The notes under the pieces were generated by a model that saw only the letters and a program-made list of their open reading frames with translations, ran no database searches and was not told the origin of the DNA. Positions 1,500 to 26,933 of a stretch of 64,000 nucleotides of DNA are shown here, piece by piece. The DNA is taken from NCBI GenBank assembly GCA_963667785.2, contig CAXXMU010000001.1, positions 448,001 to 512,000 on the forward strand, in the 5' to 3' direction. Position 1 is the first letter of the stretch. Each line of letters begins with the position of its first letter. Source of the DNA: Alphaproteobacteria bacterium (GTDB lineage Bacteria; Pseudomonadota; Alphaproteobacteria; UBA828). A program made the position numbers and the translations under genes.

Positions 1500-2018
1500 T
1501 TATGTCCGTGTGTCGGAATTCTCGTATTCGGCGATTTCGGCCACGGCCTCCCGCCCCTGGCGAATGAAGGCCTCTGCGCGGCTCAAGACTTCCTGCACTG
1601 CCCTTCCGTGCCTGCCTCGCATGGCGCACTCCCAGACCACCAGCGTCCGCCACTCATCCGCCTTCAGCGCGGCCAGCGCATTCCGGTCCCGCTCCATGTT
1701 GCGGTTAATTTTGGTCCTCCAGAATGTGGCGCGGGTCTTGGGCCACCTGAACAGCGAGCATCCGTGACCATGCCAGAAGCAGCCGTGCACGAATACCACG
1801 GCTCGATGTCTGGGGAACACCATGTCGGGTTTGCCAGGCAAGTCCGCTCCATGAAGCCGGCAGCGGAGGCCACGCTTGTGAAGCCCGCGCCGGAGCAGCA
1901 TTTCGGGTTTGGTGTCCTTGCCCCGGATTCGGCTCATGACGAGCCGGCGCTGTTCCGGCGTCAATACGTCGGAGACTTCGTCTCTTTCCGTGGAGGTACC
2001 CACGCCTTCAGGCTTCAA
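1500..2018 (-). CDS. vsr: Very short patch repair endonuclease
   Basis: SDVLTPEQRRLVMSRIRGKDTKPE, LPGKPD, FVHGCFWHGH and VVWEC motifs; directly downstream of a C5 MTase. Confidence 0.92.
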   Translation of the reverse strand: MKPEGVGTSTERDEVSDVLTPEQRRLVMSRIRGKDTKPEMLLRRGLHKRGLRCRLHGADLPGKPDMVFPRHRAVVFVHGCFWHGHGCSLFRWPKTRATFWRTKINRNMERDRNALAALKADEWRTLVVWECAMRGRHGRAVQEVLSRAEAFIRQGREAVAEIAEYENSDTRT

Positions 2019-3588
2019 CGGCGTTCCCCATTGCCGGCAAATCAGGTCGAACTCCGGTCGGTGGCGCCGAAATCGCGGAAGCCGCTGGGGTTGAGGACTG
2101 ACAAGGTTGCTGCTGCATCGGATGCGCGCTGTCCGTCGGCTGTAGTGTCTTCATGATTTCGGTGGCAATCGTTCGCGCCATCAGGGGTGGAACCGCGTTC
2201 CCGATCTGCCGGAAGGCTTGGTTCATTGCACCCATGAACACGAAGCCGTCAGGAAATGACTGCAACCGCGCCGCTTCCCGGACTGAAATCGTCCGGGCCT
2301 GGGCGCTGTCGTAGTGGATGTGGCTGTAACCGTCCTTGCTCAGATGCGCCATGACCGTGCGAACCGGCTGGTCCCGGGTGATCTTCCGCCACTTGTTCGG
2401 AAACTTGCCGGCGTCGTAGGGCGGTACGATCGAGCGTCGTAATACTTCATGCTCCGGTGATTCCGGCTCTATAGGTACGCCCTCCCCGGCGAGGCTGGAC
2501 AGCTCCTCACCGAGCATCTTCAGGGCGAGCCTATGTGCTTCCGGATACTGATCACCCTCCTTCATCCGTGCGAACAGCGCGTAGTCGCGAGGGAGGTACC
2601 GAATGACATGATCGTAGATGCCGTCTCCGGCCTCGTATCCTGCCCAGTTCTTCATCGAGCGGGCATAATCCGAATCGGGACGGTTCCCGTCGTAGGGGAC
2701 CGGGCTGTCGAAGCGACGCGCACCCCGCTTCAGCACGCCTTCTCGCATCAGCCTGCGGGCATCGATTCTTGGAAGATCGCCAATCGCCTCTTCGGCGGTT
2801 ACGGCAGGCGGCAGATCGCCAGTGGCCTGGGGTGGGTCCCGATAGTTGTGCGCCTGCTCGAACAGGTCACCATTGGACAGTACCTTCAGCGCGACCCGGC
2901 GCGACCCTTCATAGCCGCGAGGCAGCTCAACCCAATGCGTCGGTGCAGGAAAGCTGACATGTTGGGCAACGTCCCGATGATACGCGATCAGAAACATGCG
3001 CTCACGAGTCTGAGGTACGCCATAGAAGGCGGCGTTCAGCAGTGTGTAGGCGCTGACATACCCGAGGTCTTCCAGGACCTCGCAGACTTCTTCGGGGACG
3101 TTGTGCCCACCGAAATTCATCACGTCTGGCACGTTCTCCATCAGAATCGCCAGCGGGCGGCAGGACTTCACGTATTTGAGGTAAGGCGTATAGAGCGTGG
3201 CGCGCGGGTCGTGACGGAACGCCTCGGGATGCGCCTCGATCTCTCGCAGCTTCGACCTGCCGACCCGCGCGAAGGCTTGGCACGGCGGACCGCCGATGAT
3301 GACGTCGAAGGTCTCAGCAACCCTGCCGAGCTTCAGCGTCCGTACGAGCTGGGCGGGAGCTGTGGAGCTGATGTCACGGTCAACCGCGTGGCGCGGATCA
3401 TCCGCATGGAAGTTGGCGCCGTAGGAGGCCGCCGCCGTGGGATCGTTCTCAACCGCCGCAGCGATTTCGAACCCTGCTGCACTGAAGCCCAGGGAAAGCC
3501 CGCCGCACCCGGAAAAGAGATCGAGCACCCGAGGCCGTCCGCCGTTTCGAAGCCTCGACATCTTTTCCTGAATTATGCGTCTGGTCAC
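2008..3588 (-). CDS. DNA (cytosine-5) methyltransferase, Dcm-like
   Basis: DLFSGCGG (I), GGPPCQ (IV), ENV (VI), QTRER (VIII), REAARLQSFPD (IX), QIGNAVPP (X). Likely GTG start at 3588 overlaps the TGA of the upstream RHH gene (GTGA). Confidence 0.93.
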   Translation of the reverse strand: MTRRIIQEKMSRLRNGGRPRVLDLFSGCGGLSLGFSAAGFEIAAAVENDPTAAASYGANFHADDPRHAVDRDISSTAPAQLVRTLKLGRVAETFDVIIGGPPCQAFARVGRSKLREIEAHPEAFRHDPRATLYTPYLKYVKSCRPLAILMENVPDVMNFGGHNVPEEVCEVLEDLGYVSAYTLLNAAFYGVPQTRERMFLIAYHRDVAQHVSFPAPTHWVELPRGYEGSRRVALKVLSNGDLFEQAHNYRDPPQATGDLPPAVTAEEAIGDLPRIDARRLMREGVLKRGARRFDSPVPYDGNRPDSDYARSMKNWAGYEAGDGIYDHVIRYLPRDYALFARMKEGDQYPEAHRLALKMLGEELSSLAGEGVPIEPESPEHEVLRRSIVPPYDAGKFPNKWRKITRDQPVRTVMAHLSKDGYSHIHYDSAQARTISVREAARLQSFPDGFVFMGAMNQAFRQIGNAVPPLMARTIATEIMKTLQPTDSAHPMQQQPCQSSTPAASAISAPPTGVRPDLPAMGNAVEA

Positions 3589-3779
3589 AGCGCTTCCGGC
3601 TCCCGCTGCTCCTGATCGAACAGGTCCGGCTGAGGGTCGAAGGTTTCGCTGTCCAGGTGATCCCGGACAAGCCGGGCGATCAGCGGAGACTTCTTGTAGC
3701 CCTTTTCGCGGCAATAGGAATCGAAACGGTCTGCCTCCGCTTTCGACATCAGCACCTGGACGCGAACCAGATCAGACAT
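3585..3779 (-). CDS. Small ribbon-helix-helix (CopG-like) DNA-binding protein
   Basis: 64 aa; beta pattern VRVQVLMS followed by two helices around 'EKGYKKSPLIARLVRDHL'; translationally coupled to the MTase. Confidence 0.65.
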   Translation of the reverse strand: MSDLVRVQVLMSKAEADRFDSYCREKGYKKSPLIARLVRDHLDSETFDPQPDLFDQEQREPEAL

Positions 3780-4090: not shown

Positions 4091-4121
4091 AACGCCGCTA
4101 AGTCATTGACTTAGCGGCGTT
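4091..4121 (-). terminator. Perfect 15-bp inverted repeat downstream of the displaced tRNA fragment
   Basis: AACGCCGCTAAGTCA-T-TGACTTAGCGGCGTT. Confidence 0.6.
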
Positions 4122-4122
4122 C

Positions 4123-4171
4123 TCAGTGGTTGCGGGGGTAGGATTTGAACCTACGACCTTCAGGTTATGAG
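4123..4171 (-). repeat. att site: displaced 3' half of tRNA-fMet (direct repeat of 31858-31906)
   Basis: 47 of 49 bp identical to 31858-31906; mismatches at 4139/31874 and 4153/31888. Confidence 0.95.
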
Positions 4172-4300: not shown

Positions 4301-4321
4301 CTGTTTGCCAATAGTTTGCCA
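4301..4321. repeat. Putative integrase arm-binding site CTGTTTGCCAATAGTTTGCCA (copy 1)
   Basis: Identical 21-mer at 31772-31792; contains an internal tandem GTTTGCCA repeat; lies just upstream of int. Confidence 0.75.
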
Positions 4322-4341
4322 GTGTGATACGCCCTGCCGCC

Positions 4342-5529
4342 ATGGTCAACCGGATTCCACGCCTCACCAAGCGATCCGTCGACGCCATCAAGCCCGACGG
4401 CACCGATACCGTCTATTGGGACGGCGAGCTCACCGGCTTCGGGCTGCGGGTGCGCCAGTCCGGGCGGAAGGTCTACGTCGTGCAGACCCGAGTCGACGGG
4501 AAGCTTCGCTGGTACACCATCGGTGCGCCGGGGGTGATAAGCGCGGATGAGGCGCGGGCGAAAGCGCTGGAGGTCCTGGCCCTCGCCAAGAAGGGCATCG
4601 ATCCCCGTGACGCGGAGGCGAAGCGCGAGACCGAACCCACAGTGGTCGAGCTGGGACGGCGGTTTCTCGAGGAATATGTTCCGGACCACTGCAAGCCGAG
4701 CACCCAGCAGGAGTACCGCCGCTCGGTCAGGCTCTTCATCGATCCCGTGATCGGGGAGATGCGAGTCTCGGAGGTACAGCGCAAGGACATTGCCGCCCTG
4801 CACCACGGGCTCAGGGACAAGCCCTATCAGGCCAACCGGACGCTCGGGGTGCTCTCCAAGATGTTCAACATGTCGGAGATATGGGGCTGGCGGCAGGACG
4901 GCTCCAACCCGTGCCGGCATGTAAAGCGTTACAAGGAGCACCAGCGCGAGCGCTTCCTGTCCGAGGAGGAGGTCGCGCGCCTTGGCGAGGTCCTGCGCGA
5001 GGCCGAGGACGAGATGCCTTCGGCGGTCGCGGCGTTCCGGTTGCTGCTGCTGACGGGCTGCCGGATGTCGGAGATCAGGGACCTGCAATGGGAGCATGTG
5101 AAGGAGGATTGCATCGAGCTTCCCGACGCGAAGACCGGCGGGCGGGTGGTGCCGCTGGGGCCGGAGGCCCGCGCGGTGCTTTCAGCCATTCCCCGCGAGG
5201 ACGACAATCCCTGGGTCATCGCCGGCAAGCTCCCAGGCTCTCACCTCACCGACCTGCAGCGGCCGTGGCGGCGCATCCGCAAGCGGGCAGACCTTGAGGA
5301 CGTGCGCATTCACGACCTCAGGCACAGCTTTGCGAGCAGAGCGCTGGCGCTCGGCGAGAGCCTAACCATGATCGGCAAGCTCCTGGGCCACACTCAGGTT
5401 CAGACCACGGCCCGGTACGCCCACCTGGCTCGTGATTCCATGCAGAATGCCGCGTCCCGCATCACCGAGAGCATCAGCGGGAACCTGTTGGGCGACGAGA
5501 CCGAGAGTTTTCCGACAGCCTCCGGCTGA
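4342..5529 (+). CDS. Tyrosine recombinase/integrase with N-terminal arm-binding domain
   Basis: WDGELTGFGLRV arm domain; LLLLTGCRMSE (Arg); HDLRHSFAS; LLGHTQVQTTARY (His, Tyr); adjacent to att. Confidence 0.95.
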   Translation: MVNRIPRLTKRSVDAIKPDGTDTVYWDGELTGFGLRVRQSGRKVYVVQTRVDGKLRWYTIGAPGVISADEARAKALEVLALAKKGIDPRDAEAKRETEPTVVELGRRFLEEYVPDHCKPSTQQEYRRSVRLFIDPVIGEMRVSEVQRKDIAALHHGLRDKPYQANRTLGVLSKMFNMSEIWGWRQDGSNPCRHVKRYKEHQRERFLSEEEVARLGEVLREAEDEMPSAVAAFRLLLLTGCRMSEIRDLQWEHVKEDCIELPDAKTGGRVVPLGPEARAVLSAIPREDDNPWVIAGKLPGSHLTDLQRPWRRIRKRADLEDVRIHDLRHSFASRALALGESLTMIGKLLGHTQVQTTARYAHLARDSMQNAASRITESISGNLLGDETESFPTASG

Positions 5530-5673
5530 CCTAACGGATCGATTTCAACAACGGTCCGTCCCACCACTGCCCCGCTTTACCTAGCGGATCACTCTGCGTC
5601 CCGCACCCATTGCCCCAACTGTCTGGAGATTACCCAATCTGTACACTGTGACCATGCTCTTGCACCGAAGAAA

Positions 5674-6291
5674 TCAGATACCCACAGCCATTCCACAGGG
5701 TTCGGGAAAGAAAGCCTGGTATGCAAGCATAGCCGCGATAATCATTATGCCTGCGTAGGCTAGCCATAATCCGTTTCTCAAGGCTTGGTAAGCTGTTTCA
5801 TTGCGTAGCTGACGAATGATATTCATAGTCTCCTGACAAGCGAGGGCTTCCGCGAGAATTTTCTGATCATTCTGACTTTGCAACAAGAACCTAGTCCCAT
5901 AACCATAGGTTGGGAGCGTACGAAGCGCACCCAGCGCCACAAAACCCGCCGCCAGAACATACAGCACCCCACATCCGATCACTACTATCGATATAGTCTG
6001 GATAGTATCCGACGATATGAGGTTGGTAAGAAAGGCTGCCGTTAGACCCAACACCGTTAGCCCAACTGACAAAGACAAAGTCAACTTAAATGTTTTTTCA
6101 TCCATACTAGAAGCGCGCTGATGCTCATCGCTGAGGCGTTGTTGGAGCCCAGATACAGAAATGGTCTCATAGTCGGCGAACTGCGGTTCTTGTAGGAGGT
6201 TCTCTGAGAAGCACTGTTTTTTCTTGCGTCGCGCACGTACCACATAATACCCGAAGGGGAAGATTTCTTCGGTAATGCGAGAAATACACAT
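5674..6291 (-). CDS. Uncharacterised ~3-TM membrane protein, third gene of the graspetide operon
   Basis: Three hydrophobic segments (LTLSLSVGLTVLGLTAAFL; ISIVVIGCGVLYVLAAGFVALG; LWLAYAGIMIIAAMLAY); AGGA RBS; 9 nt after the ATP-grasp stop. Confidence 0.75.
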   Translation of the reverse strand: MCISRITEEIFPFGYYVVRARRKKKQCFSENLLQEPQFADYETISVSGLQQRLSDEHQRASSMDEKTFKLTLSLSVGLTVLGLTAAFLTNLISSDTIQTISIVVIGCGVLYVLAAGFVALGALRTLPTYGYGTRFLLQSQNDQKILAEALACQETMNIIRQLRNETAYQALRNGLWLAYAGIMIIAAMLAYQAFFPEPCGMAVGI

Positions 6292-6300
6292 CCAACTTTC

Positions 6301-7257
6301 CTACTGGTTGTCCTTGGGTGGATTCTGCAACCAAGATGCTATTGCAGAGTCCATCGGGCGATCACAGGTTGACAACCAGCCCCATTCTCCGGTGGGATTA
6401 ATCTCAATGAAAAAGATACCGTTGGGTGTTTCGATTAGATCAATAGCGCCAAAGGATAGACCGAGCTGACGCACCAGTAATCGGCATCGACTGGTCATGT
6501 CATCGCTCAACTCCACATCACGATATTCAAGCTCAGATTTTGGAAGTACGCGCCAATCACCTGATACCCCATTGCCGCCTGATAGTATCTGGACAGCAAA
6601 AACCTCTTCACCGATGACCGTAACTCTTAGATCTATCTTATCTTCCAAAGCGTGTTGTGCGAGAAACGGCACCGCTCTAATGGCCTCCTCGGTCAAATCA
6701 TCACAAGAGCTTATTGTCGTGTAAGTGAATAAACAATCGTCACCATCCCGCAGTAGAACGGTATCCAAAGACTTCACCACCAGTGGCCCTGGAAATGTCC
6801 GCCGAATACGCGTAGCGTCGTTAGTGGCAAGTGTTGTTGGAACTCTAAAGCCACAACTTTTGGCTACACTAAGCTGATATGGCTTTGACTCCGCGATATA
6901 CGTGGCAGTTGGTGAGTTCATCCACGTCGCGTCACGAAAGACGCAGAGGCCTCGAAGAAACGCAGTCCATTGAGACCGCTCAAGCTGCTGCTGTGGACAA
7001 AGCGGCTCAGAGGGGGTGTTACGCAGAAAGACGGGCTGACGAAACCAAACGGAACTGAGATCCTGACCGACGACATGGGTCCCGGCCGGACCACGCATAG
7101 TCAACTCGGGAACGAGAGGATCGAGAGTGAGGTGATAATCCGCTAGCTGCTCACGGTTTAGGCGAACATAGGGGACGCCAGCTTTTTGCAGTCGCAGGGT
7201 AACTAAATCTGTGGAAAAGTCATACAGCCCAGCAAGGATAAGAACGCGTGTTGTCAT
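6301..7257 (-). CDS. ATP-grasp ligase, MvdD/RimK-like RiPP macrocyclase
   Basis: ESKPYQL..A...GF.VP.TL.TN, VVKSL, DLRVTVIG, DWR, FGAIDLI...FIEINPTGEWGWL. Confidence 0.9.
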   Translation of the reverse strand: MTTRVLILAGLYDFSTDLVTLRLQKAGVPYVRLNREQLADYHLTLDPLVPELTMRGPAGTHVVGQDLSSVWFRQPVFLRNTPSEPLCPQQQLERSQWTAFLRGLCVFRDATWMNSPTATYIAESKPYQLSVAKSCGFRVPTTLATNDATRIRRTFPGPLVVKSLDTVLLRDGDDCLFTYTTISSCDDLTEEAIRAVPFLAQHALEDKIDLRVTVIGEEVFAVQILSGGNGVSGDWRVLPKSELEYRDVELSDDMTSRCRLLVRQLGLSFGAIDLIETPNGIFFIEINPTGEWGWLSTCDRPMDSAIASWLQNPPKDNQ

Positions 7258-7460
7258 TCGCCTTTCTGATCTTCGCCTGTTTCTTGATCACACTTCTTGG
7301 TGGTGGGTCCGCCATTGGCAAACTCGTCCACCGTAACGATCGGTACGCCATCCTGTAGCCAATAGCCTCGGGCGGCATCATATTGAGCACCAGACGGCAA
7401 TTCAGGTGTCATGCGATAGGGCCGACGGGTCGCGAAGGTCATCAGTACATGCTCAGCCAT
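7254..7460 (-). CDS. Graspetide precursor peptide (68 aa), core PTTKKCDQETGEDQKGE
   Basis: ATG at 7460 with GGGA upstream; stop overlaps the ligase start (ATGA); C-terminus rich in T/K donors and D/E acceptors. Confidence 0.85.
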   Translation of the reverse strand: MAEHVLMTFATRRPYRMTPELPSGAQYDAARGYWLQDGVPIVTVDEFANGGPTTKKCDQETGEDQKGE

Positions 7461-7952
7461 ATTCTTTGTCCCGTTTGTGGTGCTTCTCGTATGCTTGGGC
7501 CATCCCTCCCACCCGATATATGGCGTGAGGTGGGCTCGTGGCGTAGACCAGAGGAGCCGCCGAGTCAACCTCGGTTCCGACCGGATCCGTCCGCAACGCA
7601 GACGAGGTCGGTGCCTACCGGCTCCGGCTGAACGACGGTAAACATCAGCCCCATTTTGCGCTCTAAGGTCGTCTCGAACGCGTCGGCATGCTCCTGCATC
7701 GCACTGTGCGTCCCCATAATCGTCCAGCGCTCGAACAAGTAGCCACTCGCGAGACCAAATCGCGTGAACGGGCTGGGAGGTGGCAAAGAATATGGTCTTT
7801 GCTCTCCAGAGTCGTAGAAAACCATATTAAACGTGTTTCTTGCCACCGGTTCGGCGAAATAGGTAGCGCGCAAGCCGTTTCACCATTGAAGGACTAAGTG
7901 TCATGTCATATATGGTTATCATAGACTTTCAACAAGTCTCCAACAAAGCGCC

Positions 7953-8762
7953 ATGTCCAGGCTCATATCAGCGCCGTTCTTCAGTGCGCACCCTGTCTTC
8001 CGCCGCGCCGAATACGCCGCCGCCGTCGGCCGCGAGTCGGGCGACAAGGTCGTCACGGCGATGCTGGGCCAGCATCTCAAAGCAGGCAACATCCGACGCA
8101 TCGCCCGCCAGGTCTTTGCGTCCGTCCCCAAGCACGCCGACGCGCGAACGTGGTCCGTTGACCGCTTCCTGGCAGCCTCGCGGCTGCGCCTGGGTGGCGT
8201 GATCGCCTATCACTCGGCCCTGGAGCTGCACGGCTATGCCTATTCCGAGGGGTACGACGTGCAGGTCATCGCCCCCGGTGAACCGCGCATGTTCGAGGCC
8301 AACGGCCTTACCTGCCGGTTCGTCAGGCCGCCTCGGGGCTTCACCGGACCGAACGGAGCAGCGACGGACGGCGTGACAGCGGTCGATCGCCTGGGACTGG
8401 ATGTCAAGGTGACGACGCTCGAGCGCACGATCACGGACCTGTTCGACCGTCACGATCTTGCCGGAGGCGCAGAGGAGCTGTTCAACTCGCTTGATTTGGT
8501 GGCGCGCGTCGACGCCGGAGCGTTGGTTCGGCATGCGCGCGCGCGCGGCAACGCCGCGGCTGCCGGCGCACTCGGTTTCTGGCTGGAGCACGAACAAGAG
8601 AGGCTGGGCGTGCCGCAACGTGCCCTCGCAGATCTCCGGGCGCTGGCGCCCCCCAGGCCACGATATGCGCTGGGTGCCAAACCTGGATCGGCAAGGACGA
8701 CCGGGCATTGGAACGTCATCCTTCCTGTCGACGTCGCCGAACGCCGGTTCGAGGGGCTGTGA
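7953..8762 (+). CDS. AbiEi-like antitoxin / transcriptional regulator (type IV TA)
   Basis: N-terminal wHTH-like region, IAYHSALELHG, VTTLERTITD; abuts an AbiEii gene. Confidence 0.8.
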   Translation: MSRLISAPFFSAHPVFRRAEYAAAVGRESGDKVVTAMLGQHLKAGNIRRIARQVFASVPKHADARTWSVDRFLAASRLRLGGVIAYHSALELHGYAYSEGYDVQVIAPGEPRMFEANGLTCRFVRPPRGFTGPNGAATDGVTAVDRLGLDVKVTTLERTITDLFDRHDLAGGAEELFNSLDLVARVDAGALVRHARARGNAAAAGALGFWLEHEQERLGVPQRALADLRALAPPRPRYALGAKPGSARTTGHWNVILPVDVAERRFEGL

Positions 8763-9740
8763 ATGGCGCCGCCCACCGTACAGACATTGCAGCGCCTCGC
8801 CGGCGAAACCGGATACCAGCCGGACACGCTGGAAAAGGTGCTGCGGCTCCTGGACCTGCTGGATGAGATTGCCGGAGACCCGTTGCTGTCCGAACGCCTC
8901 GTCCTCAAGGGCGGAACGGCGCTCAATGTCTTCCACCTCAATCTCGACCGGCTCTCGGTGGACATCGATCTGAACTACATCGGCGCGCTCGACCTGACGA
9001 CGATGGCAAGCGAACGGCCTCACGTCGATGCCGCGATCGACCGGCTCCTCACCTCACAGGGCTACGCCGTCCGGCGCCGCCCCACCGAGCACGCCGGCGG
9101 CAAATGGCTGTCGCGCTATGCTTCCGCTCTCGGTGGCAACGCCTCCCTAGAGTTGGATGTGAACTACATGGCGCGCCAGCCCTTGTTCGGCGCAGCCCGC
9201 ATGGAGTCCCGTCTCTTCGGCGAGCTTCGGACGAGCCGCGTTTTCGTCCTCGATCTCCATGAGATCGTCGCCGGAAAGATCGTGGCGCTCTTCGACCGGC
9301 ACGCCGCACGCGACTTGTTCGACGTGCGCCGCATCCTATCAATCGAGGGGATCAACTGGGGCTGGATCAAGGCCGCAGTCCTGGCCATCGGCGTTTGCAA
9401 CCGCCGTGATTGGCGAATGGTGTCAACCGACGCCATTGCGTGCGACCCGCGCGAGTTTCGTCGGAACCTCGCCGTCTGCCTTCCGCGTGGCTCCCTTGCC
9501 GACGGCAAGGATATCGACACGTGGATCGAGCACACCGCGGCACTTTGCCGCGAAAGGCTCACATTCCTGTTCGATCTCTCGGCCGATGAACGGAAGTTTC
9601 TCGATGATGTCCTCGACCGGGGCAAGGTCGAAGCCGATCTTCTCGACGTCGAACCTGAAATTCGGACGCGAATCCGCGCCATGCCCATGCTCGCGTGGAA
9701 ATCTGAGCACGTTCGAAGGCATCATGGTCTCAACCCGTAG
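8763..9740 (+). CDS. AbiEii-family nucleotidyltransferase toxin
   Basis: LKGGTALN...RLSVDIDL, EIVAGKIVAL..R..ARDLFD. Confidence 0.9.
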   Translation: MAPPTVQTLQRLAGETGYQPDTLEKVLRLLDLLDEIAGDPLLSERLVLKGGTALNVFHLNLDRLSVDIDLNYIGALDLTTMASERPHVDAAIDRLLTSQGYAVRRRPTEHAGGKWLSRYASALGGNASLELDVNYMARQPLFGAARMESRLFGELRTSRVFVLDLHEIVAGKIVALFDRHAARDLFDVRRILSIEGINWGWIKAAVLAIGVCNRRDWRMVSTDAIACDPREFRRNLAVCLPRGSLADGKDIDTWIEHTAALCRERLTFLFDLSADERKFLDDVLDRGKVEADLLDVEPEIRTRIRAMPMLAWKSEHVRRHHGLNP

Positions 9741-9912
9741 AAATTTGACATTGGGAAGATCGTCACAGATGCTTGTCCCGCTAGGCTCAGTAATGCTCTC
9801 AAATGGAGCGAGGCATGAGAATTTCACAAATATTATCAAGTGGTTTTACCATCACCCAAGATTTCAGAGACCGTGTATGGTTTGTGATGTTTGAAATCGC
9901 CAATTTACGCAC

Positions 9913-10512
9913 CTATTTTAATCGGTACTCATAGGATACTTTTCTAACCTTACCCGCCTTGTGATCTTCGATTAGTTGAGCCATGACGCATCTTGCCGCC
10001 TCAACGCCATATTGCTCATTATATCGGTATGCTTGATTAAGCATAGTAAGCCAATCCTCGCCGGATACACCATCTGGTCGAGCAAATCCTAACTCTCCTA
10101 ATCTACGCAGTGTTATTGCAAAGTCGGCACCTAATTGTATACCTTCGTGGTGTCCTAGTTCATCCGGTGTATCTAGTCGCTCCAAAAGATGTTTCGTACC
10201 ATCCCGTAACAACCTTAATATTAAGTCTTGCACTTCATTGCTTTGTCGAGACAAAAGCTCAGCTTTCTTACGTCTGCGGCGTTTCCTAAATTCAACACAC
10301 CAGATAAAATATGGCCAACTAAAATACAAAAAACTACCAATTCCAATAATAATCAAACCAACGTAGATGGATTGGACGTCTATAATCGCCTCAAACAGTT
10401 CTTTGGCTTTTTCCGAAGGACCGGAAAAAAACTGTTGGGTAACGGCTCCAATCCATCCCACACTTACTATGCTGCCCGCCGCGCGAGCCGCATTCTTTCC
10501 CTTCGTGTCCAT
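9913..10512 (-). CDS. Hypothetical low-GC membrane protein
   Basis: 199-aa ORF with N-terminal hydrophobic segments followed by a basic RKRRRRKK stretch; AT-rich flanks. Confidence 0.6.
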   Translation of the reverse strand: MDTKGKNAARAAGSIVSVGWIGAVTQQFFSGPSEKAKELFEAIIDVQSIYVGLIIIGIGSFLYFSWPYFIWCVEFRKRRRRKKAELLSRQSNEVQDLILRLLRDGTKHLLERLDTPDELGHHEGIQLGADFAITLRRLGELGFARPDGVSGEDWLTMLNQAYRYNEQYGVEAARCVMAQLIEDHKAGKVRKVSYEYRLK

Positions 10513-10729
10513 ACATGAATATTACATTTTTTGTCCAAAATTGCAATAACTCTCTATTTCAGACTCTGTAGAAACTTTGTTCCCGAATCGTTAGCGAATG
10601 GTAGTGGTTCATTGGAGCGGCTCGGATCCTCGAAACATAGGCGGAAGAGTCGGATTCTCTCACCATTACTATGTGCTTTCTATTAGAGATCTATGTTGAA
10701 TTCAGCATAAGACATTCGCTCCGATTCTG

Positions 10730-11325
10730 TCGGCGACGCGCGCCGACGACGCCTTGATCGAATCGCGCGCCAGACGCGTTTAGCGCGGGGTCGTGTCGAT
10801 CTCGCTGTGTCCGAGCAGCTTGCCGATCACCGGCAGAGACTCCTCGAGCGCCAGGGCGCGGGACGCGAAGGAGTGGCGAAGGTCGTGAAGCCGGACGTCC
10901 CCCCTGTCCAGTCCTAGTGCGGACGGTCTGCCAAACATGGTCGAGGCCGCCGCCGCTGTAGCGCCCGTGCTGGTCGTTGCCGGAGAACACCCAGGGGCTG
11001 CCCTTGCGCCGCGGCATCGCTTCGAGCAGGCGCACCGCCATCGGTGGCAGGTGGGCCGTGCGCGGTCAGGCCTTGGCGTCCGCGAGGCGGAACTCGCCGG
11101 CGTCCAGATCGACGTGGGCCCAGCGCAGGGTGAAAATTTCGCTCTTACGGCAGCCGGTCAGCATCAGCAGGCAGATAGCCGCCACGGCCTTGGGCGACGC
11201 GACGCCGTCCGCGGTGGCCCGGTCCAGCACCTGTCCCAGCCGAGTGACCTCGGCATCGGTCAGGAAGCGCTCGCGCGACCGCTCCGGGTACTTCACGACC
11301 GATCGGCAGGGATTGTTCAGGTCGA
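10730..11325 (-). pseudogene. Degraded tyrosine integrase, C-terminal half
   Basis: NPC...RERFL...LMLTGCRKSE, then a stop and a frameshift, then DVRLHDLRHSFASRALAL...LLGH...TTPR* (TAA in place of the catalytic Tyr); paralogous to 4342-5529. Confidence 0.85.
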
Positions 11326-11378: not shown

Positions 11379-12902
11379 TCAAACAACGTCACCGTTCCAA
11401 ACCAGCGGCTCGCTCGTTTCCGAGTCCATAACGCCGTCCAGAATTGGCGGAGACGCCGGGTCCGCCTTCGCATGATCGAGTTGACGTTGTGTCAAGCCGC
11501 GAGCCGGAGATGCAGAATCATTCATCCAATCGCGCGAGAAGTCGGTCCCGCTCAAGATGGCATCGACTAGATTCGCGTCGGTCAGATCTGCGTTACCCAG
11601 ATTTGCGCCTGCCAAATTCGCCTTGGTCAGCTCGGCCCTGTTCAGGTCCGCACCTGCCCCCCCGAGGTTGGCGTTACTCAAATCGACTCCGCCCAGCTTT
11701 GCATCTTTCAAACTTGCCGCCCTGAGATCCGCTCCGCTCAAGTTCGCACCGCCGAGATGAGCAGCATCGAGCTTGGCGCCCCCCATCGATGCCCCACGCA
11801 TGTCCGCACCGCCCAACTCCGCTCCTCGCAGATCCGCTCCTTCCAATTGAACTCCCACCAATCTCGACGGGAACAGGCTTCCCTTCCAAAGATTCTGTCC
11901 CACTCGGTCAACAAGGCCCAGATTGGCATCTCGCAGATCAGCCCCGATCAGTCTGGCGGCAGACAGGTTCGCCCTCCTCATGTCGGCGCCACGGAAATTG
12001 GCGCCAGGCATATTCGCGGCCGACAAATCTGCGCCCGGGAGAACGGCGTTGGCCAAACAGGCTTGCCAGCCCCGTACACGACGCAGATCCGCCATTGTGA
12101 AGTCGAAGTTCGAGAAGTTCGCACCGTGGAAGACAAGACCGGGCAGGCAGGCATCGGTGAGATTCATCCTGAACGTTTCCTCGCTCTCCAAGGCGATCTG
12201 TGCTTCGCTCCGCTGAGCAATCTGAGTCATGACCGTCTCGATGTCTTTTGCCAGCTCAGGGACCGGTCCGACTTTCCGATCGGCGACGAAGAACGGACCG
12301 TAATGCTCTGCCGGCGCTGACTCGAACCATGGAGCATCCTTTCGGCCTGCTTCCTCTTCATCAATTTCAGCATCGTCCGTATCCGGTTCGCGATGTTCTT
12401 CGTCTCCGGGCGTTTCTGACTCTTCCGGCGGCTCGACGCGCTCCACTGCGTCTCCTCTTGTCCGGTCTACAACAAACGCCGAAAAGAGCTGCATGACCGG
12501 CATATGGAAACTGGCCGGATACTCGCTCGCGAGGCGGGCCAGAGCGTGGATACCACCGATGCGGACCGATCCGATATCAGCATTGCCCAGCATTTCAGCG
12601 CCCTTCTGAAACCGGTCATTCAATAGCATCTGCACCGTGGTATCCGATTGGCGGCGCGCAGCATCCGCTTGACGTTCGGCCACAGTGCTACGCCACATCG
12701 CAAGCGGAAGGCCGATCGCAGCCGCGAGCATCAAGCCGAGGTTTCGAAGCGTTGTGCTGGCCGATTCTCCGCCGGTCAGCCACGCCGGACAGGCAACCCA
12801 GGCGGCGCCCGCTGCGACGACCAAAATCACCGTCCACGCTACGATCCACCACGGCAACGGAATCCGGCTGCAGAAGCGGCGCATCTGTCTCAATCGGGTC
12901 AT
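11379..12902 (-). CDS. Membrane-anchored pentapeptide-repeat protein
   Basis: Two N-terminal TM segments, VRIGGIHALARLA motif, many A(D/N)LxG repeats; likely start MTRLRQ at 12902. Confidence 0.85.
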   Translation of the reverse strand: MTRLRQMRRFCSRIPLPWWIVAWTVILVVAAGAAWVACPAWLTGGESASTTLRNLGLMLAAAIGLPLAMWRSTVAERQADAARRQSDTTVQMLLNDRFQKGAEMLGNADIGSVRIGGIHALARLASEYPASFHMPVMQLFSAFVVDRTRGDAVERVEPPEESETPGDEEHREPDTDDAEIDEEEAGRKDAPWFESAPAEHYGPFFVADRKVGPVPELAKDIETVMTQIAQRSEAQIALESEETFRMNLTDACLPGLVFHGANFSNFDFTMADLRRVRGWQACLANAVLPGADLSAANMPGANFRGADMRRANLSAARLIGADLRDANLGLVDRVGQNLWKGSLFPSRLVGVQLEGADLRGAELGGADMRGASMGGAKLDAAHLGGANLSGADLRAASLKDAKLGGVDLSNANLGGAGADLNRAELTKANLAGANLGNADLTDANLVDAILSGTDFSRDWMNDSASPARGLTQRQLDHAKADPASPPILDGVMDSETSEPLVWNGDVV

Positions 12903-13652
12903 GACTCCGCTTCCCTCGTGGCCTCGTGCAGGATCGACGCCCGCCGCTTCGCGTCCGCCTCGCCACATGCACAGCATCGCCGGACGCTCACTTGCTCATC
13001 CATAATACAAGCGTGTCCGGCTCCAAACCCGCGGCTCGCAGTTCTGCGAACGACATTGCCGGCTCACGCTCGTCGCTTCGCGACGTCGCCCTCTTCGGTT
13101 TCGCCGTCCAAGGTGAAGAGCGACGCCACTGGCGCCATCGTCAAGCACACTGCCACATCGCTTCTGTCCTCATTGAGCACTTCGCGCTCAACGCGTCCTC
13201 CCACCCTCCCGCCCTCCCATACCCATGATGGTGCTGACACTTACGTCGTCCATCCCGCTGCGACGTCCCGTCAGCCCTCGCGCCGCTCATGCGCCCGACA
13301 TCGTCTCCTCGTCTTGCTCGATCATGCGCTCTCCAAAGCCACCGCGCTCGCCTTCGAGGCTCAGCCGCAAGCGGATTCCGCTTCACTGGATCCTTCCTCG
13401 TCGCCTCCGCTCCGATGCCCGCCATGATGGACGGCTTCGCCACCGGAATCGGAGCCCCTGCGACAAGAATCGTCACCTGATTCGCTCCGATCATCGAATT
13501 TTTTCGCCATGCGCACGCCCAGACACGCCGGTACATCTGGTGATCACTCGCCACGGAGGCCCCACATATGGTGTTTGCAGCGAGGACTGTGCTATGCAGA
13601 CAGCATGCGCTCCGGGACAACACATCGAGGAAAATGTGGCTCTTCACACCTC

Positions 13653-13853: not shown

Positions 13854-14981
13854 GTGGTAGCGACGCTCGCCCAGGCCGCTTCGGCCGCCTACTACCTGGA
13901 GAACCAGCGCTCGTTCCGCCATCCGAACGAGTACTACACGGCGGGCGAGGAGCCGGACGGGGTCTGGTTCAACCCGAATGACCTGTTCGGCCTGAAGGAC
14001 GGCGGCAAGGCCGACAGCGCGGACTTCCACCGCCTCTATCACGGCTTCGCGCCGGACGGCTCGGGCAGGCTGACCCGGAACGCGGGCAGCGAGAAGCGCT
14101 CGCCCGGCCTCGACATGACCTTCTCGGCCGACAAGAGCGTCTCCGCGCTCTGGGCCATCGCCGATACCGAGCTGCGCGGCGAGATCGAGCAGGCGCACAA
14201 CGATGCCGCCCGTGTCGCGCTTGAGGAGACGGTGTTCCGCCACTGCGCCTGGACCCGCATCCGCGACCGCCACGGGCAGATTCAGGTTCTGTCCGCGGAT
14301 CTCATGGCGGCGATGTTCCAGCACGGCACCAGCCGGGACAACGACCCGCAGCTTCACACCCACTGCGTGATCTTCAACGCCGCGAGGACCCACGAGGACG
14401 GCAGGTGGCGGGCGATGCATCAGCACCCGGTCTACGGCTGGGTGAAGGCGGCGGGCGCAGTCTATCGGAACACGCTGGCCTGGAACCTCCAGCAGCAACT
14501 CGGCCTACCCATCGAGCAGTACGGCCAGGACGGGGAGTTCACTCGGATTGCAAGCGTTCCGGAAGACCTGGCGGCACACTGGTCGAAGCGGCGGGCGGCG
14601 ATCGTCGATGCGGCGAACGACATGGGCTTCAAGGTCGAGGGCAACGCCGCACGCGCGGCGGCGGCGAACAAGATCACCAGAGCGGGGAAGTCCCCCGACA
14701 ACGACCCCGAAGTGCGTCATGAGCGTTGGCGGGGCGAGGCAGAGAGTTTCTGCGAGCGCGAGGCGCTGATCGCGGAGCTGCTGGGCAAGGCCGAGGACAT
14801 CACCCAGGAGCAGCTGCGCGATCTCACCGCAGTGTTGGAGACGCTGCCGGAGCGCCTGACCCGGGAGGAGGCGGTGTTCCGCCTGCCGGACGTGGTGGAG
14901 CGCGTGAGCAACTTGACGGCGGGGTTGCTCGGCCGGGAAGCGGCGGCGACCGCGGTAGAGCGCGTCATGCGTCACCCCTAG
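13854..14981 (+). CDS. MOBF (TrwC-family) relaxase domain, ending at an in-frame TAG
   Basis: N-terminal YY...YY, DMTFSADKSVS, HGTSRDNDPQLHTH (HUH), WSKRR. Confidence 0.88.
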   Translation: MVATLAQAASAAYYLENQRSFRHPNEYYTAGEEPDGVWFNPNDLFGLKDGGKADSADFHRLYHGFAPDGSGRLTRNAGSEKRSPGLDMTFSADKSVSALWAIADTELRGEIEQAHNDAARVALEETVFRHCAWTRIRDRHGQIQVLSADLMAAMFQHGTSRDNDPQLHTHCVIFNAARTHEDGRWRAMHQHPVYGWVKAAGAVYRNTLAWNLQQQLGLPIEQYGQDGEFTRIASVPEDLAAHWSKRRAAIVDAANDMGFKVEGNAARAAAANKITRAGKSPDNDPEVRHERWRGEAESFCEREALIAELLGKAEDITQEQLRDLTAVLETLPERLTREEAVFRLPDVVERVSNLTAGLLGREAAATAVERVMRHP

Positions 14982-17900
14982 GTGGTGCGGCTGACCCGCA
15001 TCCCCCGCTCCGCCGAGGGCCGCGCGGACATGGCCCATACCAGGCTCTACACCACCGGGCGCACGCTTCAGATGGAGCAGGCGCTACACGACATGGCCGC
15101 AGGCATGGCGGCCGAAACGGGCCACGGCCTCCCCGCCCAGGCGATCGAGGAGAAGATCGCATCGCTCATAGAGCGAGGCTATCCGCTAAGCGAGGAGCAA
15201 GCGCACGCGATCCGCGCGGTGGCCGGCGCGGGCGGACGGGTGGCGATCGTCGAGGGCGCGGCCGGCTCGGGCAAGACCACGACGCTGAGACCCCTCGCCG
15301 ATCTCTGCCGCGAGCACGGGGGTACGGTGATCGCCACCGCGGTGGCGTGGCGCACGGCGGTGGCGCTCGGCAACGACCTCGATGCCCGCCCCTTCTGCGT
15401 GGACAAACTGCTCAAGCTCGCGGCGAAGAACAGTATCGAGATCGACGGCGACACCACCATCGTCGTGGACGAGGCGGGGATGCTGTCGACCCGCCAGGCG
15501 CATCACATCCTGCGGCTCGCGGATCGCCACCATGCCCAGGTGGTGTTTGCGGGAGACACCAGGCAGCAGCAGCCGGTGGAGGCGGGGCCGGGCTTGCGGC
15601 TGATCCGGGATGCCGTGGGTAGCGTCCGGGTGGACCGCATCAGGCGCCAGAAGCCCGACCTCGAGGACATCCAGGTCCACGTCCACGGCGAGTCTCCGTC
15701 CGCTGCGCGCTTCCGGGGCGGTTTGATGGGCGACGTTGAGCGTGCCCGCATCTTCGCCGACTACGAGGCGATGGAGAACAAGCCCGCCTTCACGCCCTGG
15801 CAGGTGGCAGTGTCGGAGGCGCTGAGGGACGGTGACGCGGCCGCCGCGATCGAGGCGTGGCACGAGCGGGGCCGGTTCCATCTCGGCTACAACGAGGAGC
15901 GGACGCTCACGGCCTTGGTGGACGAGTGGGACCGCTACACGAGGCAGCACACGGACAAAAGCGCCGCGGTGCTGGCGCGCACCCGCGCCGAGGTGCGGGC
16001 GCTGTCGCACCTGATGCGCGAGAAGCGCTTCGCCCGGCAGCGAGACCTTGAAAGCTCAGACATCGAGCGCGTCACGGTGATGGTGAGCCGGGGGACGGAG
16101 GACGACAGGACGGTCTCGCCGCTCGAGATCGCCGCCGGCGACCGGCTCCGCATCGGCGCCACCTGCTGGGAAAAGCAGCTCTTCAACGGCACCGTGGTCA
16201 CGGTGGAGGATCTCGAAGTCCTGCACGGGGAACGCAAGCCCGCCGGGCACGGGGCCGGGACGAAGGCGAGGGACCGCGAACCGGGAGAGGACGAACCCTC
16301 CGTCCTGATAACCGCGTGCACCGACGACGGGCGTCGGGTGACCTTCCGCCACGATGAGATCCGCGACTGGTACGGCAACATCCGCCTCGACCACGGCTAT
16401 GCGCTCACCATAGCCGCCGCCCAGGGGCTGACCGTGGACCGCACCTTCATGCTGGCGGACGACCGGCCGGCACGGGAGACCATCTATCCGGCGGCGACCC
16501 GTCATCGCGAGGAGATCGACATATACGTCAACCGCGCCCCGCTGGCGCTGGACGTGGCCGCCCGGCGGGCGGACAGCGATCGCGAGGCACCGGTACTCGA
16601 TAGTGAGATTCGGGCGTACCTGGCGGAGCGCTGGTCGCGCGCCAGGCCCAAGGAGGCGGCGCTCGACTACATGGGCGTGGGCGACTGGGAGGATCGGGAC
16701 ATCCATCGCCGCGCCGGCGGCGACCTGCGCCATGATGAAGCGGCCGAGGCTCGCGCGGCCGCCAACGACAACGCGCTCACGCGCATTGCGCGAGACGTGC
16801 AGCGCACCGCCTTTGCCTGGCGCCATGAGGCTGTCGTCGGTGCCTTCGCCGCAGGGCGGCAAGAGGTTCTGGCATCCTGGAACGAGCTGCGCCATATGAC
16901 CCGCGCCGACGGCGATGTGGTGGCCCTGGGCGACACCTACCGCGAGACCCTCGACCGCCACGCGGCATTGCTCAGGCAGGCTGAGCCCTTCCGCGCCCGG
17001 CCGGAGGCTTTCTCCGCCCTGCTCGCTGCGCGCAGCATCGTCCACGAGGACCTCGACGAGTTCGAGCAGCTCCACGGCCGTGCGCGCCGCCATCGCCACG
17101 CGGCGACCATGCGGCAGGTGCATCGGGCGCGGCGGGAGACCGAGCGGCAGGACCTGACGCCCGCGGCGCGGCAGAGCGAGCTGACGCTGGAGGGCGAGGC
17201 CGTCCGGTCGACGTCCCCCGAGCCACCCGACTGGTTCGCTTCCGTACCCCCGCCCGACGACAAGGACCTCGCCTGCGCGCGCGCCTTGGTAGAGCAGGAA
17301 GACTTGGCACCGCCTGCCCCGGACCCTGAGCCCGTCAATCCCGACTGGTTGCCCGCCTACAACGATGTGGCCCGCGAGTGGAAGGCGCTCAACGAACGGG
17401 CACGGCAATCCGGCACGATTGCGTTCTACGCCAGAGGCTATGCCGAGCTGGTCCCGCGCATCAGGGCGGTGGCGGAGAGCTTCGATATCCCCCTTGAGAA
17501 CCGCGATCCCATGGTCCGGACCCTTCAGCTTCACGAACGCCATCTCGCGGCACGGAAGGAGATCGAGGACTTCCTCGCCGGCGCGGAGCGGCACATGGTA
17601 AGGCGCGAGGCTCTCCGCGAGGCGGCGACCGACGCCAACGCGATGGTCGCGGCAATGCCGAATTACCGGCGCTGGAGAGGGAAGGCCGAGCAGCTTGTGG
17701 TCGAGGGAGAGGCCATTCTCTCCGACCGCGAGACCTACGGCCCCCATCTCGATAACATTGCCGTCGGCGCGGAGCGTGCGCAGGGGGCGGTCTCCGATCT
17801 CGGCGTGGCGATCCAGGATGACGACGAGGAGCTGGCCCGGTCCAAGCGAGAGGCACGCGAGCAGCGCAGGTGGGCACAGGCACAGACCCGTCTACTGTTC

Positions 17901-24160: not shown

Positions 24161-24164
24161 GCGC

Positions 24165-26930: not shown

Positions 26931-26933
26931 CCC

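Follow-up and report, generated by a model that had tools for sequence, protein, structure and literature searches.

What a peptide-modifying operon is doing between an integrase and a set of phage-defence genes is the question raised by a stretch of DNA from an alphaproteobacterium. The window, by which we mean the whole stretch analysed, comprises 64,000 nucleotides (nt) of contig CAXXMU010000001.1 (positions 448,001–512,000) in assembly GCA_963667785.2 of Alphaproteobacteria bacterium (UBA828). Our data show that three of its genes make up a graspetide cassette of group 7 (the marinomonasin type) that is complete and self-contained, with the following parts.

7254–7460, minus strand: graspetide precursor of 68 amino acids (aa), with its ATG at 7460 and the C-terminal core TTKKCDQETGEDQKGE, which matches the consensus of Makarova cluster171 and Lee group 7.
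6301–7257, minus strand: ATP-grasp ligase (graspetide synthetase) for a ribosomally made peptide that is modified after translation (RiPP), 318 aa; match to NCBIfam TIGR04187 at 3.4e-56.
5674–6291, minus strand: three-helix membrane protein of 205 aa from an unnamed family, as seen from its hydrophobic segments and an AlphaFold2 (AF2) model.

The precursor stop is joined to the ligase start by a 4-nt overlap (ATGA, 7254–7257), and a gap of 9 nt (6292–6300) lies between the ligase stop and the start of the membrane gene. The G+C content is 0.48–0.54 across positions 5501–7500, compared with 0.65–0.67 in the flanks 4501–5500 and 8001–9000. An earlier note on this DNA had described a tightly coupled, AT-richer three-gene operon beside the integrase, and its coordinates, overlap, gap and lower G+C were all verified. 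This lower G+C suggests that the cassette joined its host island as a separate event. The note had also read the operon as a precursor, an MvdD-like ligase and a protein with three transmembrane (TM) helices, accompanied by neither protease nor exporter. Translations and library scans bore this out, and in the window no protease, ATP-binding cassette (ABC) exporter or acetyltransferase adjoining the cassette was found by Pfam, NCBIfam or PADLOC scans. A promoter and terminator scan of positions 5400–8000 gave nothing exceeding shuffled sequences.

The peptide and its ligase can be placed in a catalogued group. Besides TIGR04187 (190.7 bits), the ligase matches TIGR04185 (MvdC, 1.8e-38) and TIGR04184 (MvdD, 3.8e-29), all three scores falling short of the NCBI curated equivalog cut-offs, and its relatives in the PDB are the graspetide ligases 9bou, 5ig8, 7m4s, 7mgv and 5ig9 (E 1.5e-27 to 3.2e-20). 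In an alignment of 69 ligases, identity falls to 36–39%, and the invariant columns include K162 and R211 as well as E285 and N287, the last two being invariant together with 32 others. The precursors (n = 76) are far more uniform in their core, where K55, K56, D58, E60, T61, G62, E63, D64 and K66 are invariant and the pattern KKxDxETGEDxK is unchanged in 76/76. In the leader, G32 and W34 are likewise invariant in all 76, and H4, L6, A10 and P22 are conserved. A contig of Marinomonas fungiae JCM 18476 encodes a ligase 52% and a precursor 51% identical to those of the window, and its core, ATKKCDVETGEDQKGE, has 14 of 16 residues in common with TTKKCDQETGEDQKGE. The supplement of Makarova et al. 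(2022) lists this M. fungiae precursor under cluster171, Lee-2020 group gr_07, and gives the cluster171 consensus as TKKxDVETGEDQKGE. The TKKxDxETGEDxKGE-type core named in the earlier note is therefore real, and it is the consensus of Lee-2020 group 7 and Makarova cluster171. The tricyclic graspetide marinomonasin comes from M. fungiae JCM 18476, according to the accessible part of the literature, and the available portion of PMC9576775 places the product Gra-3 in group 7 as sequence-similar to marinomonasin, with three dehydrations for both. By sequence, the peptide and ligase of the window belong to the catalogued group 7, and cross-linking of the peptide is predicted from the family. Because they fall in this group, the chemistry is already known.

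The membrane gene is a constant feature of the cassette. A scan of one genome per species yielded 108 relatives of the ligase, the best 80 of which were used as loci, and these 80 cassette loci span more than 15 phyla. In 76 of the 80, a profile of the membrane family matches the open reading frame (ORF) directly after the ligase. The remaining four are two contig ends (L022 and L038), a truncated ORF (L054) and a divergent ORF (L062), and the last two retain the motifs of the membrane family by eye. Since the same order recurs in 76/80 loci, the gene arrangement is far beyond chance. A reverse search that started from the membrane protein gave 17 loci, 13 of which have the precursor and ligase directly upstream. 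Among the others, an insertion-interrupted copy (L216) shows part of the ligase and two are without upstream DNA; where upstream DNA is present, no intact membrane gene without a ligase was found among the 17. Conservation of the TM gene beside homologous ligases, which the earlier note had proposed as a check, is thus seen in nearly every locus.

Damaged copies were observed as well. In a Nitrospirota locus, the last of these 17 (L215, 1007–3100), only the 3' two-thirds of the membrane gene are left, next to a 359-aa transposase-like ORF, and precursor and ligase have been lost; the locus is the 5'-truncated relic of a cassette that has eroded. In a Vicinamibacterales locus (L019, 6966–9372), an insertion of about 1.6 kb with a 474-aa ORF (7366–8790) splits the membrane gene inside TM1, and the precursor and ligase are intact.

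In 58/76 loci the end of the precursor gene overlaps the start of the ligase gene, and the spacing from the ligase to the membrane gene is mostly −32 to +35 nt. The 607 ORFs that flank the 80 cassettes include no family seen at more than three loci, and the cassette is autonomous because no flanking gene recurs. When two genes on each side were inspected in 37 loci, a GNAT acetyltransferase was found once (L028) and a major facilitator superfamily transporter once (L065), and neither an ABC or peptidase-containing ABC (PCAT) exporter nor a protease was present. A quick ligase tree intermingles phyla. One fully supported clade unites a Bacteroidales metagenome-assembled genome, Halomonas and Marinomonas, and the Pseudomonadota require at least four changes on well-supported branches. 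The cassette evidently moves between phyla as a unit, as judged from such sequence comparisons. The membrane family was not found in 100 relatives of the window genome, of which 20 share its genus and 43 its family, and the complete genomes of E. coli gave no match to an enterobacterial cassette copy. The ligases in phage records are all distant (29–32% identity), and eight alphaproteobacterial plasmids (H1–H8) encode ligases of 45–49% identity.

The 205-aa membrane protein has hydrophobic segments at 70–88, 102–120 and 177–195. In the AF2 model (mean predicted local distance difference test score, pLDDT, 78.6), long helices at 46–89, 95–124 and 143–194 form a bundle, and in the predicted layout some 65 cytoplasmic residues at the N-terminus precede TM1 and TM2, which are separated from TM3 by a helical, cytoplasmic insert of about 50 aa. 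Basic residues mark the cytoplasmic side of membrane proteins (the positive-inside rule). Here they are R19–K25, K66/K69, R124, R134, K143, R160, R163 and R172, and by this rule we infer that the N-terminus and the insert at 125–175 are cytoplasmic and that the C-terminus is outside. The near-invariant motifs in 36 close relatives are E8-E9...P12-F13 and R52...E56..R59A60...D64xK66T67 in the N-terminal part, and P-x-YGYG-T and E154..N157..R160..R163N164E165...Q169..R172N173G174 in the later part. Among 73 diverse members, whose identity falls to 12–20%, K66 never changes, and N157, R172 and N173 are each conserved in 90% or more. The conserved polar residues (D64/K66, the P-x-YGYG motif, N157, R160, R163, N164, E165, R172 and N173) cluster directly before TM1, directly after TM2 and directly before TM3, and they would face the cytoplasm because of the positive-inside rule. 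Past TM3 the homologues are extended in different ways: those of Bacillota have an extra domain of about 85 aa, and those of alphaproteobacteria have long Pro/Thr/Ser-rich tails.

The family is large and nameless. Neither Pfam nor NCBIfam gave a family above cut-off for the 205-aa protein. A word-indexed search found 206 relatives, almost all of them unnamed, and when a profile was run against 1.84 billion representatives, 1,181 clusters (50% identity) matched at E ≤ 0.001 and 769 at E ≤ 1e-10. A profile search of PDB sequences gave 0 matches. Structural kin were sought with the AF2 model and Foldseek, as the earlier note had suggested, and none appeared at E ≤ 0.001 in the PDB or BFVD. A comparison with 48,161 chains by VIA-align returned generic long helical bundles only, the best Z of 9.7 being in the uninformative range for helical proteins. 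No fused forms of the membrane protein (658–2000 aa) were found, which is a weak negative. Prediction of a complex of ligase, precursor and membrane protein scored 0.00 in two runs without controls, and counts neither way.

The earlier note had likened the membrane protein to small membrane effectors such as the Pycsar TM protein, and this likeness extends to the helix layout and a structure lead. PycTM and the cassette protein are of similar size, and both run through a helix, TM1, TM2, a cytoplasmic helical part and TM3, with a D/E-x-K motif before TM1. An Atlas search with P0041, a 58–59% identical homologue, led to a PycTM-labelled cluster with TM-scores of 0.65/0.69 over about 150 residues, which is below the bar of the tool, and the Atlas feature neighbours of P0041 include PycTM-labelled clusters (score 0.92), a lead only. 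Homology, however, was not upheld by Pfam or by profile–profile comparison. With 11 true PycTM ORFs collected as the reference, hhalign of the family alignments gave probabilities of 1.7%, 1.8% and 7.9%, and the Pfam model PycTM (PF18967) matched 0/10 family members at E ≤ 1, compared with 2/2 true PycTM (4e-13 and 1.3e-24). PF18967 has no match in the membrane protein of the window and was not found in its genome. No pyrimidine cyclase (PycC) lies beside the membrane gene, whose neighbours are the ligase and the integrase, and no solved PycTM structure surfaced in searches of PDB structures. The shared helix layout and the D/E-x-K motif before TM1 are all that remains of the likeness. The partner in Pycsar is a cyclic nucleotide, whereas that of the cassette protein would be a ribosomal peptide.

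Kinship with Holin-X (PF07332, Phage_holin_3_6) was likewise not supported. Comparison by hhalign with 29 PF07332 ORFs gave 5.5%, and the window protein has no match. Weak PF07332 matches occur in 12/36 relatives (best 6e-4), and the homologue at L078 is the sole one that passes the Pfam cut-off (29.5 vs 28.4 bits). Because PF07332 is a common inner-membrane family, found in 34/201 genomes and in E. coli, such a match would tell little about function. Searches of PADLOC-DB v2 with the three cassette proteins gave 0 families for each at E ≤ 0.001.

The neighbourhood of the cassette was compared with that of arbitrary DNA. The test set was 37 evenly spaced loci out of the 48 with full flanks, two called ORFs being taken per side (146 proteins). 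For the control set, 19 genomes of the window's phylum supplied 37 stretches, each 13 kb long and taken from fixed places on contig 1, with ORFs called likewise around a virtual cassette (147 proteins). Both sets were put through identical Pfam and PADLOC scans (E ≤ 1e-15) and compared by Fisher tests. A PADLOC hit was present at 16/37 test loci and 4/37 controls (p = 0.0033), in line with the defence-gene enrichment that the earlier note had predicted. The counts were 14/37 and 1/37 (p = 0.00026) once generic cross-hits had been taken out; at the test loci these were a WYL regulator and a methyltransferase/DbpA helicase, and in the controls a cyclase and two ABC ATPases. Mobile-element hallmarks (transposase, integrase, recombinase, type IV secretion system, ArdC, and plasmid partition or primase genes) were found at 10/37 and 3/37 (p = 0.064). 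Any hit to PADLOC, a mobile element or a toxin–antitoxin or toxin family was found at 25/37 and 7/37 (p = 4.7e-5); in all these comparisons the controls are unmatched by genome, the hits had been seen before the categories were set, and related loci are non-independent. Some cassettes adjoin defence genes that look complete (L011 7705–8373, L008 7593–10592, L016 1850–5221 and L074 1598–5299). The genes at these loci are PD-T7-4 (6e-78), HmaB (3e-105), HmaC (E = 0) and HmaA with AbiEi, and Hma components recur beside cassettes in three unrelated hosts. The association of the cassette with defence genes is real, yet alone it is no proof of a defence function. According to the accessible part of PMC12715929, enrichment near phage-defence genes is found for ordinary lanthipeptide clusters of class II as well. 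Because ordinary RiPP bacteriocin clusters adjoin defence genes as well, the neighbourhood alone cannot decide between the readings of the cassette.

Our tentative preference, held at a little under an even chance, is that the ligase makes a tricyclic peptide, that the membrane protein releases it, and that its conserved target, probably a protease, lies outside the cell. By analogy with the family, the leader would be bound by the ligase through the conserved H-x-L...A and G-x-W residues, and the ATP-driven ligase would then tie Thr and Lys side chains to Asp and Glu in the C-terminal core to give three rings. In marinomonasin, the rings are reportedly one ester and two isopeptides. The membrane protein would be the dedicated third part. 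On the inner side of the membrane it would take up the finished peptide, or the complex of ligase and peptide, and give this small and very hydrophilic molecule a way out, perhaps as an oligomeric conduit in place of the ABC or PCAT exporters that other graspetide clusters have. Once outside, the peptide would act on a target that is conserved across bacteria, for which a protease is the first candidate, since the functionally characterised graspetides are all protease inhibitors, according to the accessible text of a preprint.

The main reason for ranking a role outside the cytoplasm first is the invariance of the core. Three rings need only six residues, and therefore something beyond ring chemistry must fix the remaining core positions. 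A conserved target outside the cassette would hold the core constant while the ligase and the membrane protein diverge. Peptide and partner could change together if the partner belonged to the cassette, and a target outside it that is conserved across bacteria explains the invariance better. The second reason is that many of the membrane homologues carry extra extracytoplasmic parts. Several points weigh against this reading. Export by the membrane protein is a proposal only, and a three-TM protein without an ATPase or other energy coupling would be an unusual exporter. No relative of it was detected among known transporters in Pfam, PDB and structure searches. The cassette has no leader peptidase, and the precursor has no double-glycine site. 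The overlap of precursor and ligase in most loci suggests near-equimolar synthesis, which is odd for a bulk product. The defence and mobile-element genes beside the cassette (16/37 vs 4/37 and 10/37 vs 3/37) fit a conflict system at least equally well.

Such a system, in broad terms the idea of the earlier note, is the next possibility, though a doubtful one. The tricyclic peptide would stay in the cell and arm or restrain a pore-like membrane effector, leading to suicide on phage attack or to post-segregational killing by which the mobile element is retained. A compact, autonomous and translationally coupled unit with neither exporter nor protease is what would be expected, and the conserved face of the membrane protein is predicted to be cytoplasmic. 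The PADLOC neighbours, also after removal of cross-hits (14 vs 1), and the mobile-element hallmarks (p = 0.064) are consistent with it, and the copy in the window is flanked by an integrase and AbiE, its island also bearing a DISARM-like operon. The Atlas leads from P0041 to PycTM-labelled clusters (0.65/0.69; feature score 0.92), the passing of the Holin-X cut-off at L078, and the disruption of the membrane gene at L019 with precursor and ligase intact also count in its favour. However, none of the three proteins matches a PADLOC model, homology to PycTM (1.7–8%) and to Holin-X (5.5%) is unsupported, and no infection sensor is evident. Were cassette proteins its sole partners, the core could co-vary with them, yet it is invariant while they diverge strongly. 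The extracytoplasmic domains and tails of many homologues would have no obvious use in a suicide effector. The enrichment near defence genes, seen also for ordinary lanthipeptide clusters in what is accessible of PMC12715929, came from controls that are not genome-matched and from categories set after the hits were seen. The idea of a defence function has survived the tests of TM-gene conservation and defence enrichment, and its prop in PycTM has failed. The cassette is a good candidate for the bench, not a demonstrated defence system.

A part in biosynthesis is unlikely. The membrane protein would either scaffold the ligase at the membrane or be a novel enzyme that removes the leader, which fits its strict linkage to the ligase, the predicted cytoplasmic position of its conserved polar residues and the lack of a leader peptidase gene in the cassette. 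There are precedents in the accessible literature: graspetide synthesis depends on a partner in two other groups, the authors of PMC13097080 suggest that strictly co-occurring proteins may often be partners, and a membrane scaffold has been cited for microviridin. On the other hand, tricyclic products have been made in E. coli from the group 7 clusters of M. fungiae and Bacillus, as reported in the available parts of the sources, with constructs that may or may not have held the membrane gene. The membrane protein has no invariant Ser, His or Cys, and a classical peptidase is therefore unlikely. Least probable of all is an immunity protein that shields the producer from a peptide harmful to a conserved target, as with microcins and class II bacteriocins, with release for example by lysis: a small membrane protein encoded last in a mobile operon and an invariant core that fits a universal target would agree with it, but the conserved residues are predicted to be cytoplasmic and not on the outer face, no release route is encoded, and growth inhibition by group 7 products is not reported in the literature searched.

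The marinomonasin cluster of M. fungiae JCM 18476 is the closest point of comparison. It has the same gene order, with a gene of the membrane family directly after the ligase (L015 6939–7664), and its product is reported as tricyclic and was obtained in E. coli, according to the accessible text. The neighbours differ: the M. fungiae copy lies among PhzF-like, SUKH-5 and MAPEG genes, whereas that of the window is carried by an integrative mobilizable element among defence genes. Microviridin (group 1) is made by ligases of the same superfamily (5ig8, 2.9e-25; 5ig9, 3.2e-20), also with leader-guided lactone and lactam rings between side chains. Microviridin clusters have two ligases, an acetyltransferase and an ABC transporter, whereas the cassette of the window has one ligase, which would have to form all the rings, and the three-TM protein as its sole accessory.

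Membrane partners of a comparable kind stand behind other graspetide ligases. In Leptospira phage LE1 (L168 2392–4086), overlapping genes encode a peptide of 37 aa, an ATP-grasp ligase and a protein of 207 aa with three TM helices, and in a gut phage scaffold (L169 2498–4605) the ligase gene precedes one for a membrane protein of 383 aa. The two membrane proteins are collinear with the cassette family and share an N-terminal F-W-P-[FW] motif; in that of LE1, an x-K-[ST] motif precedes TM1, and a helical insert separates the first two TM helices from the third. The match of the LE1 protein to the family profile is marginal (7.4 bits), and its core peptides and ligase branch differ from those of group 7. 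Because the similarity is marginal, common descent is not established. The LE1 and gut phage proteins could belong to a wider superfamily of membrane proteins that accompany graspetides. Loci of the thuringinin branch (Makarova 'cluster 18') also consist of overlapping genes for a peptide, a ligase and a small membrane partner with three TM helices and about 200 aa, but differ in core peptide and ligase branch. In the accessible part of their paper, Makarova et al. regard the uncharacterised membrane protein of the thuringinin loci, which have no known transporters, as probably a transporter, and they list a second uncharacterised membrane cluster ('cluster 40') near ATP-grasp genes, to which they give no clear role and which may be the cassette family.

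In the accessible text of PMC13097080, group 7 clusters are described through their Pfam-annotated neighbours (an acetyltransferase and an efflux pump), and the published analysis of graspetide co-occurrence uses Pfam and TIGRFAM models, as far as its available part goes; the membrane family of the cassette has neither. The available part of a preprint describes another graspetide type as the cargo of conjugative elements in Porphyromonas, with a type I secretion system. The literature searched, in which some supplements were out of reach, gives no role to the cassette membrane protein and describes no graspetide-based defence system. The obligatory membrane partner, the autonomy of the cassette, its preference for mobile and defence neighbourhoods and the invariance of the core are undescribed in that literature.

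The constant companion of group 7 graspetides is thus an unnamed membrane family of at least 1,181 sequence clusters, and no biological role of these graspetides is reported in the literature searched. The cassette offers a testable system of about 1.8 kb that would be either a minimal export route for hydrophilic cyclic peptides or a RiPP-based means of defence or addiction. The complete invariance of the 14-residue core across phyla predicts a universally conserved target. If the peptide instead works inside the cell in conflict, a broad class may have been overlooked, and part of the 'orphan' graspetides would be immunity or addiction machinery and not secreted products. That such a class could be broad follows from the collinear membrane partners behind other graspetide ligases in LE1 and the gut phage scaffold.

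The AbiE genes, DISARM-like operon and HNH nuclease that the earlier note had named as neighbours were all found by Pfam and PADLOC. The features of the host island around the cassette are as follows.

4091–4171, no strand: left copy of an 81-nt direct repeat, with a copy of the 3' part of tRNA-Met, 88% identical to 31826–31906; probable island end.
4324–5529, plus strand: tyrosine integrase (Pfam Phage_integrase 1.6e-22, Arm-DNA-bind_3 2.6e-15).
7953–8762, plus strand: AbiEi (PADLOC 1.2e-78).
8763–9740, plus strand: AbiEii (PADLOC 4e-102; Pfam AbiEii 1.7e-24).
11379–12977, minus strand: pentapeptide-repeat protein of 532 aa, between AbiE and the relaxase (Pfam Pentapeptide 4.4e-45).
13854–14981, plus strand: TrwC-type relaxase (Pfam TrwC 2.6e-68).
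14982–18722, plus strand: TraI-like helicase (Pfam AAA_30 1.9e-38).
18986–30908, plus strand: DISARM-like operon (Pfam; PADLOC DruE 3.5e-79 for the first protein, a weaker DrmA).
30944–31717, plus strand: HNH protein of 257 aa (Pfam).
31862–31938, minus strand: tRNA-Met gene (ARAGORN), overlapped by the right 81-nt repeat at 31826–31906; probable integration site.

A 28-nt segment of the 3' part of the tRNA recurs at the left end with 2 mismatches, where 0 such matches are expected by chance. Between the 81-nt repeats, the order is integrase, cassette, AbiE, pentapeptide-repeat protein, relaxase and helicase, DISARM-like operon and HNH protein. By its gene content and ends, this repeat-bracketed region of about 27.7 kb is evidently an integrative mobilizable element at tRNA-Met that is loaded with defence genes, and the cassette is part of its cargo. 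A 21-nt repeat, 100% identical, lies at 4301–4321, just upstream of the integrase, and at 31772–31792, 34 nt before the right 81-nt copy; it may be an arm-type site.

The DISARM-like operon encodes a 1724-aa DEAD helicase with MZB (DUF1998), a 921-aa SNF2 helicase and a 1324-aa N6 methylase of the Eco57I type. The helicase and DUF1998 are fused, the best PADLOC match of the fusion being DruE of Druantia and not DrmA, and the HNH protein stands where DISARM would have a phospholipase D (PLD) nuclease; the operon may be a hybrid or an undescribed variant. Directly past AbiEii there is a second patch of low G+C (0.43–0.50, 9500–10500). The ORFs at 9913–10512 (minus strand, 199 aa) and 10691–11041 (116 aa) have no match in Pfam, NCBIfam or PADLOC, and the patch may be another recently acquired cargo gene. 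Beyond the left end of the island, the minus strand encodes a C5 cytosine methylase (2008–3714; Pfam 3.3e-60) and a helicase resembling UvrD and GajB (2–1438), and the DNA outside the left repeat may be a further defence region or else an island that inserted earlier at this tRNA.

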